Below, one piece after another: positions 155 to 23,192 of a stretch of DNA of 23,331 nucleotides. The translations under genes and the position numbers were made by a program. The number at the start of each line of letters is the position of its first letter. Position 1 is the stretch's first letter. The notes beneath the pieces are model-generated. The model was not told the DNA's origin. It did not search any database and saw only the letters and a list, made by a program, of their open reading frames with translations. Source of the stretch: an uncultured Fibrobacterota bacterium (lineage in GTDB: Bacteria > Fibrobacterota > Chitinivibrionia > Chitinivibrionales > FEN-1185); the NCBI GenBank assembly GCA_963753345.1, contig CAVWBU010000006.1, forward strand, positions 1-23,331, given 5' to 3'.

Positions 155-333
155 CGGAGTCACCAAAGTGCGCTCGAAACAAAATGTTCTCGACGCGCTA
201 GGCACGACTGGAGGTCGCGCTGGAGCGCGATGCCGCCCGGACCCGGCCCTGTGGGCCATAGGGCCGTGGCGGCCCGAGGCCGAAGGCCGAGACCGGAAGG
301 AGGGCCGACCCCGCGCAGCGGGGGAACGCCCAA
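155..333 (+). repeat. Structured intergenic repeat, copy 1 (right module only)
   Basis: GACTGGAGGTCGCGC..GCGCGATGCCGCCCGGACCCGGCCCTGTGGGCCATAGGGCC...GACCCCGCGCAGCGGGGGAACGCCCAA matches the copies at ~7815-7978 and 18570-18714 and the reverse complement in 14326-14550; left boundary approximate. Confidence 0.85.
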
Positions 334-457
334 TTCTTTTTAATACTTGTGTGCCGCCACTAAAATTTCTTGCATCTACATGGGGGAAACGCCCATCTTT
401 TTTATATGGAATTATATACAAAAATTTAGTTTACAAACTACTCAGTAAAAAATCTCC

Positions 458-486
458 TTGACTTATCAAACCAACCACTGTATATT
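458..486 (+). promoter_or_regulatory. sigma70-type promoter of the ilv/leu operon
   Basis: TTGACT (458-463), 17-nt spacer, TATATT (481-486), AT-rich upstream tract, 42 nt before the leader ATG. Confidence 0.7.
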
Positions 487-528
487 TACCATGTCAAAAC
501 AAAATCATAGCACAGTAGAGAAAAATTC

Positions 529-630
529 ATGTTCACTACATCATCCAAATCAACAAATCTTATAAGCCTTGTTCTTCTTTTGAACCTGGTGGTAGTCATT
601 ACTTTGCCAAAAAGGGAGACGGGCTTATAG
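529..630 (+). CDS. ilv/leu operon leader peptide (33 aa, MFTTSSKSTNLISLVLLLNLVVVITLPKRETGL)
   Basis: Hand translation from ATG 529 to TAG 630; run LISLVLLLNLVVVITL of Leu/Ile/Val codons; overlaps the antiterminator segment; analogous to enterobacterial ilvL/ivbL. Confidence 0.85.
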   Translation: MFTTSSKSTNLISLVLLLNLVVVITLPKRETGL

Positions 631-690
631 AAGTATAAGCAGAGCAAAATCAAAGACCCGTCTCCCACAAGAGACGGGTCTTTTTTTATT
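614..690 (+). terminator. Transcriptional attenuator (antiterminator plus intrinsic terminator)
   Basis: Terminator stem AAAGACCCGTCTC (652-664)/GAGACGGGTCTTT (671-683) followed by a T-tract; GGGAGACGGG (614-623, inside the leader ORF) pairs with CCCGTCTCCC (657-666) as the mutually exclusive antiterminator. Confidence 0.9.
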
Positions 691-832
691 TCATGGCGCT
701 TTCGACCTGCCGGCAGGGGGCGGGCCTCATTCCTTGATTAGAAGCAGGGGAAGAGGTATTTTTTAAAATTCCCTCTCATGCGGCACGGTGCGAGCGCTTG
801 ACGGGCGCACAATCAACATTGCGGAGGACGGA

Positions 833-2563
833 GTGAAGAAGAAAGGTGCCGAAATTCTTGTCGACGCCCTTGTCAACGAGGGCGTGGATATCCTGTTCGG
901 CTTTCCAGGCGGGCAGGCGATTCCGATTTTCGACGCGCTGTACGATGAGAAGAGGCTGAAGGTCGTGCTCGTGCGGCACGAACAGGCCGCTGCGCACGCC
1001 GCGGACGGCTATGCGCGCGCAACGGGCAAGGTGGGCGTGTGCATTGCCACGTCCGGACCCGGCGCCACCAACCTGGTGACCGGCATCGCCAACGCGCATC
1101 TCGACTCCATACCCATGGTTGCGATAACCGGACAGGTCGCCACGCCGTATCTCGGGACCGACGCGTTCCAGGAGGCCGACATGGTGGGCATAAGCAGGCC
1201 CATCACTAAGCACAATTTCCTGGTGAAGGATATACGCGAGCTGCCGACTACCTTGAAACAGGCGTTTTACATTGCGCGCACCGGCAGGCCCGGGCCCGTG
1301 CTCGTGGACATTCCGTCGGACATCTCCCGCGCCGTGCTTGACGATTACGAGTACCCGAAGGAAATTACCATGCGCAGCTACCGGCCCACGGTGGTGGGGC
1401 ACAGCCGCCAGATCGAGAAGGCGGCTGAGCTCATCAAGACCGCCAAGAAGCCGCTCATTTACGCGGGCGGCGGCGTGATAACCTCGGGCGCGCACGAGGA
1501 GCTGTTCGAGCTCGTCACCAAGCTCAACGCGCCGGTGACGCTCACGCTTATGGGGCTGGGCGCGTTTCCCGGCGAGCATCCGCTGTTTGTGGGCATGCCC
1601 GGCATGCACGGTTCAAAGACCGCGAACCTGGCGTTCCAGGAGGCAGACGTGATCGTTTCGGTGGGCGCGCGGTTCGACGACCGCGTGACCGGCCACGTGG
1701 GATCGTTTGCGCCCAAGGCGAAGATCATCCACCTGGACATCGACCCCGCCGCGATATCGAAGATCGTGCGGGTCGACATACCCGTTGTGGGCGACGCGAA
1801 GAACATACTGGCCGCGCTCAACAAGCTCCTGCCCGCGCGCGAGCCGTCCGACTGGAACGGGCAGATCGAGAAATGGAAGAACGGCAGCCTGTTTACGTAC
1901 AAGAACTCGGACAAGGTGATCAAGCCGCAGTATGTGATCGAGGAGCTGTATCGTTTGACAAAAGACAAAGACGTTCTGATCGCCACCGACGTGGGCCAGC
2001 ACCAGATGTGGACCGCACAGTACTACCGGTTCGCGCGGCCGCGCACGCTGCTCTCGTCGGGCGGGCTGGGCACCATGGGGTTCGGGCTGCCCGCGGCGAT
2101 GGGCGGCAGCCTCGGGCGCGGCCGCACAACGGCCATCGACATTGCGGGCGACGGCTCCATCCAGATGAACATCCAGGAGCTGGCCACGATTGCGATAAAC
2201 AGGATACCCGTGAAGATCGTGATCATCAACAACGAGTATCTCGGCATGGTGCGGCAGTGGCAGGAAATGTTCTGGAACAAGCGGTACAGCTCCACCTGCC
2301 TGCGCGGCGGGATGCTGTGCGAGGAGTGCAAGGGACCGGGGCATTGCAAGATAAAGTATGTCCCGGATTTCGTGAAGCTCGCGGAGAGTTACGGTATTCC
2401 CGGGTTCCGGGCGACAAAGCCCGACGAGGTCGCTTCGGTTCTTGACAAAGGCCTGAAAACCGACGGCCCCGCGCTCATGGAGTTCGCCGTGGCGCCCGAG
2501 GAAAACGTGTTTCCCATGGTCCCTGCGGGCAAACCGCTCGACCAGGTGATGGAGGAATTATGA
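833..2563 (+). CDS. ilvB: Acetolactate synthase, large (catalytic) subunit
   Basis: Motifs FGFPGG, RHEQAAAHAADGYAR, TSGPGATN, DVGQHQMW, SGGLGTMGFGLPAA, GDGSIQMN; start set to GTG 833 behind GGAGGA (ORF track begins at 788). Confidence 0.96.
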   Translation: MKKKGAEILVDALVNEGVDILFGFPGGQAIPIFDALYDEKRLKVVLVRHEQAAAHAADGYARATGKVGVCIATSGPGATNLVTGIANAHLDSIPMVAITGQVATPYLGTDAFQEADMVGISRPITKHNFLVKDIRELPTTLKQAFYIARTGRPGPVLVDIPSDISRAVLDDYEYPKEITMRSYRPTVVGHSRQIEKAAELIKTAKKPLIYAGGGVITSGAHEELFELVTKLNAPVTLTLMGLGAFPGEHPLFVGMPGMHGSKTANLAFQEADVIVSVGARFDDRVTGHVGSFAPKAKIIHLDIDPAAISKIVRVDIPVVGDAKNILAALNKLLPAREPSDWNGQIEKWKNGSLFTYKNSDKVIKPQYVIEELYRLTKDKDVLIATDVGQHQMWTAQYYRFARPRTLLSSGGLGTMGFGLPAAMGGSLGRGRTTAIDIAGDGSIQMNIQELATIAINRIPVKIVIINNEYLGMVRQWQEMFWNKRYSSTCLRGGMLCEECKGPGHCKIKYVPDFVKLAESYGIPGFRATKPDEVASVLDKGLKTDGPALMEFAVAPEENVFPMVPAGKPLDQVMEEL

Positions 2564-3042
2564 ACACACGCACGATTTCGGTGCTTGTGGAGAACCACAG
2601 CGGCACGCTCTCGCGCATTTCGGACCTGTTTGCGAGCCGCGGGTACAACATCGCGAGCCTGACGGTCGGGGAGACCGAAGACCAGTCGATTTCGCGCATG
2701 ACCATCGTGGTGGAGGGCGACGACGCCATCATCGAGCAGGTGGTGAAGCAGCTCAACAAGCTGATCGACGTGATCAAGGTGATCGATTTCGAGGGACTTC
2801 CGGTGATCGAGCGGGAATTCATCCTCGTGCGCGTGGATTCCTCGAAGTCAAGCCGCCACGAGATCGTGGAGCTTGCGGACCTGTTCGGCGCCAAGGTGGC
2901 CTATGTGGGGTCGTCGTCGATCACGTTTGAGCTGTCGGCGCCGTATGACATCATCAACGACTTTATCAACCTTATCAAGCCGTACGGCGTCAAGGAGCTC
3001 ATCCGCACGGGCAAGGTGGCGATGGCGCAGACGAGGAAATAA
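2560..3042 (+). CDS. ilvH: Acetolactate synthase, small (regulatory, ACT) subunit
   Basis: ISVLVEN..G.LSRI..LF..RGYNI.SL.VG.TE....SRMTIV, QLNKLIDVIKV, EL.RTG; ATGA overlap with the ilvB stop. Confidence 0.95.
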   Translation: MNTRTISVLVENHSGTLSRISDLFASRGYNIASLTVGETEDQSISRMTIVVEGDDAIIEQVVKQLNKLIDVIKVIDFEGLPVIEREFILVRVDSSKSSRHEIVELADLFGAKVAYVGSSSITFELSAPYDIINDFINLIKPYGVKELIRTGKVAMAQTRK

Positions 3043-22520: not shown

Positions 22521-22730
22521 ATGTTCGGACCACTCAATTACAAGCTGCTTGGAGTGAGCTTCGTCCTGCTCGTCGTCGGCTATATCTGCCTCGGCCAGGG
22601 ACCGGTAAACAACCCGCTGTCGCTGAGCATCGCCCCCGTTATCCTGGTCGCGGTCTACTGCATCCTTCTTCCCATTGCCATCGTGATAAAGGGCAAGGAG
22701 AGCAAGGAGAACGGCGAGAAGAAACGCTGA
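22521..22730 (+). CDS. Small two-TM protein, DUF3098-like
   Basis: FG..NY.LL...L.VVGY.....SL.IAP.ILV..Y pattern recalled for DUF3098; start may be upstream (TTG 22479). Confidence 0.65.
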   Translation: MFGPLNYKLLGVSFVLLVVGYICLGQGPVNNPLSLSIAPVILVAVYCILLPIAIVIKGKESKENGEKKR

Positions 22731-22737
22731 TCGCGAG

Positions 22738-22812
22738 GGGCGTTTAGCTCAGCTGGTACAGAGCACCTGCCTTACAAGCAGGTGGTCGTAGGTTCGAATC
22801 CTACAACGCCCA
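22738..22812 (+). tRNA. tRNA-Val (anticodon TAC)
   Basis: Acceptor GGGCGTT/AACGCCC, D arm GCTC/GAGC, anticodon arm CCTGC-CTTACAA-GCAGG, T arm GTAGG-TTCGAAT-CCTAC; CCA not encoded. Confidence 0.96.
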
Positions 22813-22850
22813 TTTTGCGAATGGCTCCCATATGTTAAGCACACCATCGG

Positions 22851-22927
22851 GGGCTGGTAGTTCAGTTGGTTAGAACGCCGGCCTGTCAAGCCGGAGGTCA
22901 CGAGTTCGAGCCTCGTCCAGCCCGCCA
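22851..22927 (+). tRNA. tRNA-Asp (anticodon GTC)
   Basis: Acceptor GGGCTGG/CCAGCCC, D arm GTTC/GAAC, anticodon arm CCGGC-CTGTCAA-GCCGG, T arm ACGAG-TTCGAGC-CTCGT, discriminator G plus CCA. Confidence 0.96.
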
Positions 22928-22931
22928 TTAC

Positions 22932-22990
22932 AAGAGCCTTGGATTCCTTGATAAGAGGTTTTCAGGGCTTTCTTATTTCTCTTTTTTCAT
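22932..22990 (+). terminator. Possible terminator-like hairpin after the tRNAs
   Basis: Imperfect AAGAGCCTTGGA...TTTCAGGGCTTTCTT stem followed by a T-rich tract. Confidence 0.35.
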
Positions 22991-23049
22991 ATAAATATGA
23001 CTGTGGTGGGGGGAGGTGTCCCCAAATCCGTTTCTTAATTAAAAAGAAA

Positions 23050-23192
23050 TGGGCGCCCCGCTGCTTCGCAGCGGCGGCCGTCCTTCCGGTCTCGGCCTCC
23101 GGCCTCGGGCTGCCTGCCACGAGGGCCCTGCGGGCCGTGGTCAGGCAGCACCGCGCTTTTGCGCGGCCTCCAGTTCTGCCTGGCGCGGGCAG
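23050..23192 (-). repeat. Structured intergenic repeat, copy 10 (divergent right module, reverse)
   Basis: Reverse complement CTGGAGGCCGCGCAAAAGCGCGGTGCTGCC...GCCCGAGGCCGGAGGCCGAGACCGGAAGGA...CCGCTGCGAAGCAGCGGGGCGCCCA matches the right module. Confidence 0.8.

Follow-up and report, generated by a model that had tools for sequence, protein, structure and literature searches.

As far as the available portions of the published accounts go, the closest described relatives of the repeats treated here are REP (repetitive extragenic palindromic) sequences, the bacterial interspersed mosaic elements (BIMEs) and the REP doublets forming hairpins (REPINs) with their transposase RAYT: high-copy, intergenic sequences, found as singlets and as doublets of two folded units inverted around a variable spacer, that act as single-stranded DNA (ssDNA), require a non-canonical stem feature and vary as mosaics (PMC3116915, PMC3333891, PMC3733652). 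The Ssn GIY-YIG system with its NTS and SRM repeats likewise comprises, in the parts consulted, hundreds of hairpin repeats recognized as ssDNA by a small protein (PMC11893778). Two further excerpted sources describe hairpins as targets of IS1272 and TnSha1, insertion sequences (ISs) of the IS1182 family (PMC5678879, PMC4923244), and another describes REP-targeting ISs such as IS1397 (PMC1525189). Here we analyse a stretch of 23,331 nt (the window), the whole of contig C6 of an uncultured Fibrobacterota genome (G000, 94% complete), which holds an ilv/leu operon followed by ordinary genes, and we describe the folded intergenic repeats within it, built from three module types that we term R, L and K.

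The modules resemble the REP systems in each of the traits listed above, and differ from them in being multi-junction folds of 60–250 nt rather than palindromes of 20–40 nt, in usually having different modules at the two ends, and in lacking a GTAG or CGTC tag in the L and R consensus, such REPs occurring only as nested guests. The initial annotation had proposed a possibly undescribed, non-autonomous REPIN/BIME-like element. Its description of behavior stands, since the modules are folded, face outward, are intergenic and turn over between species; the outward-facing arrangement around a spacer that marks a REPIN is seen in 195 L+R and 31 R-R units among 453 clusters, with the difference that the two units of an L+R pair are unlike. 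Membership does not stand: besides the missing tag, no RAYT was found in G000 or beside modules, and the RAYT loci of relatives have no flanking modules. The repeats differ from the Ssn system as well, in that SRMs are about 30 nt long and flank their own gene, whereas in this genus paired L and R do not border the GIY-YIG genes.

A BLASTN search with the ten copies of the window returned 486 merged loci covering 117,699 bp of G000, the repeats making up ~2.6% of the genome. Profile hidden Markov models (HMMs) run on 4.52 Mb of G000 gave 425 R and 288 L matches in 453 clusters (195 L+R, 131 solo R, 73 solo L, 31 R-R, the remainder mixed), all G000 counts being a little too high because some contig segments are duplicated; in five clusters there is overlap with a gene predicted by a simple gene finder. 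Near-identical duplicated segments occur in contigs C4/C5/C16, C44/C45/C46, C10/C39 and others, probably through strain mixing in the assembly. Module K joins the outer arm of L to a different inner part and end hairpin (for example C2:5587-6193 and C26:139285-139674); it accounts for 31 ends in G000 and is common in G004. The copies are neither restricted to the window nor a product of mis-assembly: DNA search found the element in four of five same-genus genomes and in none of 35 others, and stretches of the window recur in independent DNA runs. G005 contains at least 38 R copies, and no module was found in G003, which is 99% complete.

More sensitive models extend the range. The R covariance model matches 19 of 81 genomes of the class, the distant matches retaining the core and exchanging arms, and a model of the L outer arm matches 33 of the 81, 18 of 151 genomes in a sample of the spirochaete phylum, where a few weak matches are probably due to chance, and two viral contigs. 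Pattern scans of viral sequences returned L1 (the L outer arm) in these two contigs and nothing for R, L2 (the long inner hairpin of L), K or the IS described below; a pattern scan of the genome collection proved too loose, as only same-order stretches among its 104 matched the HMMs; and BLASTN against plasmids and phages gave no convincing match. As separate observations, hairpins with GNA loops are densely packed upstream of a large hypothetical gene on a Thauera plasmid (locus L370:2350-2900), only 22 nt matching L, and 6 of 30 spirochaete-phylum loci (L382, L384, L401, L402, L407 and L409, three of them at one site) have DUF1564 genes in the neighborhood of the L outer arm; a literature search for DUF1564 and Leptospira turned up no paper. 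At E ≤ 1 no Rfam family matched the repeats, the matches obtained being two tRNAs and six sub-threshold hits elsewhere, and no description of the family, or of an IS1182 element with such a module, was found in the literature searched (mostly non-subscription articles, main texts). The repeat family is thus real and, as far as Rfam and the literature were searched, undescribed.

Fold and strand of the modules

In the R module a 5-bp closing stem leads to a three-way junction; beyond it come tandem G·A pairs, two GNA triplets facing each other and finally a four-way junction whose arms are exchangeable. In an alignment of 20 copies, 89% of cells are paired, and both sides vary in 20 of the 43 pairs; none of 500 shuffles reached the observed covariation and all slid controls scored lower, these controls being lenient, as the structure was defined by hand from the same 20 sequences. 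Linkage (Cramér V) reaches 0.95, 0.90 and 0.91 between paired partners 80–130 nt apart, and is 0.21 for unpaired positions 3 nt apart and 0.11–0.26 between the closing stem and the inner arms; linkage therefore tracks base pairing, not distance.

With the triplet letters left free, G·A appears in both triplets in 239 of 246 parsed R copies (out of 425 matches), the middle base varying. The outer arm of L, read on the opposite strand, has the same GNA/GNA motif in 148 of 170 parsed copies (out of 273), and the spirochaete-phylum arms have it in 18 of 22, three others having Watson–Crick pairs instead. This motif matches the guanine zipper of human satellite III DNA in the portion of that report consulted (PMC11014236). 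Triloops are equally strand-specific: on R's strand 275 of 601 are GNA against 13 of the reverse type, and on L's plus strand 3 of 82 are GNA against 34 of the reverse type, over a background of 7.6% for each. According to an excerpted source, mini-hairpins with GNA loops have high stability when made of DNA and far lower stability when made of RNA (PMC13037366). From the strand asymmetry of the triloops together with the G·A zipper, we conclude that each module acts as folded ssDNA, so that a paired unit presents one folded end per strand. The pairing itself is shown by covariation; for the three-dimensional motifs we infer the likely form from published DNA structures.

A multicopy structured noncoding RNA, the other possibility raised in the initial annotation, or an mRNA-end element acting as RNA, is very improbable. 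The folding z-score of −3.06 as RNA, a T-rich run past R and the tendency of L+R pairs to follow the direction of the upstream gene (122 of 188) would suit it, yet folding energies do not discriminate, DNA giving −3.22. It is opposed by the absence of UNCG loops and the low count of GNRA among tetraloops (33 of 396) set against 275 GNA triloops of the DNA mini-hairpin type, by the folding of L and R on opposite strands, by the small orientation bias of solo R, and by the lack of an Rfam match and of a reverse transcriptase in two high-copy genomes. The conserved TTGAC leader has, on inspection, no −10 box at normal spacing.

Modules in the window and their turnover in gene gaps

All ten repeat stretches listed in the initial annotation lie where it placed them and total 2,865 nt. 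Its single modular element was right as to the modules and wrong as to the unit, which consists of separate, paired modules folding on opposite strands. Covariance models (R1 for the R module, R2 for the L outer arm) find eight R modules, the copy at 14326 being split into two matches, and six outer L arms. The features are as follows.

190–332, plus strand: solo R module upstream of the ilvB promoter (R1, 141 bits)
382–395, plus strand: orphan R end remaining behind an AT-rich linker
4290–4414, minus strand: L module with minus-strand fold (L1 4290–4349, L2 to about 4414), starting 13 nt past the ilvC stop (R2; repeats D5/D8)
4415–4528, no strand: spacer of GTTGAA-type tandem repeats and R's conserved leader
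4529–4696, plus strand: R module, TT/AA type (R1, 78 bits)
6271–6400, minus strand: solo L module past the leuA stop (covariance model)
7551–7698, minus strand: L module past the leuB stop (covariance model)
7807–7977, plus strand: R module whose final arm (7932–7962) is a nested GTAG-type REP hairpin (covariance model)
10683–10860, minus strand: L module with a long inserted hairpin, past the ilvE stop (covariance model)
10969–11226, plus strand: R module with additional inserted arms (covariance model)
14326–14555, minus strand: R module with an inserted arm (two covariance-model matches, 14326–14417 and 14428–14540; sequence)
14667–14789, plus strand: L module with plus-strand fold, partner of the R at 14326 (covariance model)
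16503–16672, plus strand: solo L module with a tandem-repeat tract on its inner side (covariance model)
18181–18193, minus strand: half of an L-type terminal hairpin, remnant of an IS1182 target
18194–18208, minus strand: IS1182 right terminal inverted repeat, 15 nt past the R end
18223–18458, minus strand: R module of CC/GG type, as at the right end of IS1182 (covariance model)
18571–18713, plus strand: R module, TT/AA type, forming an R-R unit with 18223–18458, probably an IS1182 derivative (covariance model)
23008–23023, no strand: orphan L/K-type end hairpin past the R end
23050–23191, minus strand: solo R module, CC/GG type (R1, 125 bits)

Other features of the window lie between these. 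A Leu/Val/Ile-rich leader peptide of 33 codons and a terminator upstream of ilvB (529–690), kept in G002–G004, are probably an ordinary attenuator. DUF559-type hairpin repeats, of the type that flanks DUF559 genes in the genus, stand at 3045–3122 and 16372–16405. The gap at 12493–12715 holds three other small repeat types, without L or R, which resemble those flanking GxxExxY, GIY-YIG and four-helix-bundle genes, and two tRNA genes lie at 22738–22812 and 22851–22924.

Copies of R are mosaic, with 108 arm combinations in 246 copies and a median nearest identity of 0.91. The ilv/leu gaps of relatives contain other modules or a simple hairpin of GTAG or DUF559 type, or are empty; the leuA gap occupied at 6271–6400 contains a full L+R pair in the sister genome G001 and no module in G003 or G005. 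Among 138 orthologous gaps of G000 and G001, drawn from 40 of about 570 G001 contigs of which 24 were picked for carrying elements, both genomes are occupied in 39, only one in 7 and neither in 92. Counted from the gaps listed, 17 of the 39 doubly occupied gaps share the same architecture, and in at least 3 the arrangement is inverted. Orthologous R copies (14 pairs) are 0.70 identical, against 0.69 for copies at different sites, between flanking genes that are 91% identical. Because the same gaps hold unlike copies in the sister genome, the elements are overwritten in place. This replacement is shown by the comparison, and we return below to the chemistry that may underlie it.

Traces of older copies accompany it. 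Old end fragments persist behind a short AT-rich linker at 35 of 377 R ends, and no clean excision joint was seen in contigs from the independent DNA runs aligned to the window. Of the modules that face a gene end, 92 of 164 R modules and 66 of 91 L modules have their outer end 15–45 nt from a stop codon. Guests of other repeat families occupy the spacers of 141 of 195 L+R pairs, SRM-like repeats being present in 9 of the 195; GTAG arms are inserted in 47 of 425 R matches; and tandem repeats of the spacer kind flank four-helix-bundle genes in these genomes.

Overwriting of this kind might need no dedicated enzyme, if hairpins stalled replication forks or were cut by host structure-specific nucleases and ectopic gene conversion and microhomology joins then replaced one repeat with another, the host tolerating or favoring the products as transcript-end or nucleoid sites. 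Overwriting within the same gaps, spacers patched together with pieces of transposase and of other repeats, the location past stop codons and the failure to find a cognate gene all agree with such passive repair. We nonetheless judge it improbable, as non-canonical positions (the zipper G and A and the junction purines) are fixed across the order and, for L, across phyla, and as G003, of the same genus, has the same operon and no module was found in it.

An IS1182 lineage that inserts in L and carries R

A distant R match in genome G057 lies 13 nt past the stop codon of a DDE transposase fragment. An intact copy of the element in G057 reads, in order, half of an L end hairpin, the 4-nt loop, a terminal repeat, a 469-codon transposase, R, a terminal repeat, the same 4 nt and the other hairpin half. 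This full IS1182 element thus shows an exact 4-bp duplication of the hairpin loop, with R between the stop codon and the right repeat; it has no R at its left end. The transposase has the size of IS1182-family DDE enzymes, about 450–500 aa; Pfam DDE_Tnp_1_6 and DDE_Tnp_1 were recognized on an 88%-identical transposase fragment, and the top plasmid matches are annotated as IS1182. A transposase search across the class gave 29 loci, of which six, at five places in G057, G004 and G001, have R-model matches. All R-bearing loci fall in a clade of 48–100% transposase identity; a seventh is interrupted by a contig end and G048 has decayed traces. R occupies the same location in IS copies of two families whose transposases are 48–88% identical.

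In G004, internally deleted copies carry R inside both ends, TT type at the left and CC type at the right, with transposase remnants between. Terminal repeats stand at both ends in copies L459, L463, L319 and L295, one end being degenerate or not displayed. Among four two-ended copies the 4-bp target duplication is exact in one (L309), has one mismatch in L463 and finds no match in L459 and L319. In G000 the terminal repeat followed by a hairpin half is found at 26 of 339 R ends (24 of CC type), among them the window's 18194–18208, and typed R-R pairs combine TT with CC in 24 of 28 cases, about 12 being expected by chance; no R-R unit there has two terminal repeats. Counts of the terminal-repeat pattern in G000, G001, G002, G004 and G005 are 26, 12, 6, 17 and 0, a few of them by chance. 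From these observations we conclude that the end-hairpin loop of L is the insertion site of an IS1182 lineage, and that this lineage has R within its own ends.

The initial annotation had counted 18223–18459 and 18532–18714 as two copies and had passed over the terminal repeat at 18194–18208; the two form one R-R unit. Its finding of no terminal repeats and no target duplication is correct for most copies and fails for the IS1182-linked subfamily. The R-R class, including 18181–18713 of the window, is probably a MITE (miniature inverted-repeat transposable element) derived from IS1182. MITEs of DDE insertion sequences have terminal repeats at both ends. The R-R subfamily of G004, with both terminal repeats and transposase remnants, conforms to this; the family as a whole differs, in that such copies are a minority and most copies lack terminal repeats and are replaced in place.

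To judge from the excerpted descriptions, the lineage is like IS1272 and TnSha1 in its DDE transposase, short terminal repeats and insertion at a stem-loop, and like IS1397 in using a host repeat as target. It differs from IS1272, where the stem-loop is deleted, in duplicating the 4-bp loop. In addition, one end or both contain a folded module of 150 nt from the very repeat family that serves as target, for which those portions of the IS1272, TnSha1 and IS1397 descriptions show no counterpart. Within the literature searched, an IS1182 lineage that uses the L hairpin loop as target while carrying R in its ends is new. IS1182 relatives at 37–42% identity with the same terminal repeat have no R, and those of Ignavibacteria (L362–L369), again with the same terminal repeat and no R, are inserted in loops of hairpin repeats, some of DUF559 type and some of other types, which suggests that repeat-loop targeting is general in this IS1182 group. 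A metagenome scan returned only two already known IS copies. Separately, G000:C26:283000-287300 holds an IS91-like Y2 transposase beside an IS1182 element of another clade sitting in an attC-like hairpin.

It is possible, if rather unlikely, that R originated in the IS itself, as a native subterminal structure of the clade (TT left, CC right), and that all R-bearing repeats are decayed MITEs with eroded terminal repeats, delivered to L hairpins by the DDE transposase and shuffled by gene conversion. The shared position of R in two IS families and the TT+CC pairing of R-R units argue for this origin, as do several composite spacers that are truncated transposase. So does genus g26, where nine of 12 matches are IS ends, two are 41-nt fragments and one is an L end, with no full free R. 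The tails of R copies without a terminal repeat also resemble the IS end weakly (z about 6 over positions 12–29), but the signal falls to z 2.0 over positions 20–29 and L flanks start similarly. The terminal repeat is, moreover, missing at 313 of the 339 R ends of G000 and from all of G005 despite its R copies; the sole intact IS lacks a left R, and in G004 the left-end R interrupts an otherwise conserved end. The commonest class, L+R, places R at the inner side of L and not at its end hairpin, and the multiplication of L and K is left unexplained.

Copying of the modules

We favor a reading, to which we give an even chance, in which the modules are folded-ssDNA repeats selected by a fold-reading protein, most likely an enzyme of the TnpA-REP kind that nicks and transfers strands; nicking and strand transfer by TnpA-REP on BIMEs are reported in the part of the source consulted (PMC3333891). 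Each module folds on a single strand: its stem contains tandem G·A pairs and a GNA/GNA zipper, and a terminal hairpin comes next, the R stem being capped by a four-way junction with interchangeable arms. Back-to-back pairing gives one folded end on each strand. In this reading copies spread mainly by the overwriting of hairpin repeats already present in the same gene gaps, often leaving an old end fragment behind an AT-rich linker of 20–30 nt. Copies appear to persist only while their stems still pair, which suggests a protein that reads the fold, and by analogy with RAYT on BIMEs this would most likely act in trans, nicking single strands and transferring them. A second route is documented: the IS1182 lineage inserts at the end-hairpin loop of L and has acquired R at its own ends, yielding what are probably R-R MITEs. 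We read IS1182 as a hitch-hiker by which some of the R copies are spread as well.

Several results weigh against this reading. No RAYT (PF01797) and no reverse transcriptase was found in G000, and GIY-YIG, four-helix-bundle, GxxExxY, DUF559, Y1, Y2 and reverse transcriptase genes of the genus, examined as cognates, are flanked by their own repeats and not by paired modules. There are no near-identical recent copies, as no R copy among the 246 reaches 98% identity with one elsewhere in the genome. The presence/absence cases listed include no clean empty site accompanied by a duplication, and some of them hold K or another hairpin. Solo modules show no strand bias relative to the inferred direction of replication (54:52 and 30:26). 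The selection of contigs in the G001 comparison and the g26 pattern, which also fits an IS origin, count on the same side. L+R pairs divide 92:58 by replication direction, a ratio confounded with gene direction.

Other parts of the search concern particular candidates. Rejection by adjacency covers flanked genes; no flanking modules are required of an enzyme that works in trans. The initial annotation had suggested looking for RAYT, GIY-YIG or reverse transcriptase genes flanked by copies; none is framed by paired modules, and one GIY-YIG gene has L on one side. Twenty Y1/RAYT loci of relatives have no L or R (four rechecked with covariance models), and the Y2 genes of G000, G002 and G004 are bounded by ends of their own, with no L or R closer than 1.5 kb, so that an IS91/ISCR rolling-circle element, in which oriIS and terIS on either side of the Y2 transposase would match the repeat ends, was set aside. 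DUF1564 was not found in five genomes of the genus, the control set also giving nothing. No protein family is enriched beside modules, and genes lying between modules in G000 are ordinary, with no transposase; no intact member of the R-bearing IS1182 clade was found in that genome. Integron integrase-like genes adjoin a module in two of five cases, not above the base rate of 22%. An integron attC site was likewise rejected: the GTT of R pairs with a downstream AAC, with GCC/GGC instead in 72 of 246 copies, and the RYYYAAC/GTTRRRY pattern does not hold.

That no enzyme was found would also agree with activity of the folded strand, on its own or on behalf of a replication protein, either as a priming signal like ssi or G4 origins or as a natural self-cleaving DNA by which overwriting begins. 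The junction purines, conserved though unpaired, and the exchangeable arms recall a catalytic or priming core, and mini-hairpins occur at single-strand origins in the excerpt of the source consulted (PMC13037366). We find this barely credible, as there is no direct evidence for it and no lagging-strand bias. We also know of no natural deoxyribozyme.

If the fold-reading interpretation is extended, L, R and K might be the first members of a cross-phylum class of ssDNA replicators defined by the G·A-zipper fold and copied by a non-RAYT enzyme or by the folded DNA itself, with IS1182 as a two-way partner for which L is the landing pad and R the cargo; we offer this tentatively and consider it rather doubtful. 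In this family natural variants of one sharply defined fold number in the hundreds, replacement in place can be seen in sister genomes, and there is an intact transposase with known target and cargo. Together these make testable how short bacterial repeats spread without a cognate transposase, which the consulted part of one account states as an open question for CGTC repeats (PMC3733652). The G057 IS1182 member is a candidate structure-targeted insertion tool, and the modules would constitute a rare natural guanine-zipper DNA motif, apparently under selection.

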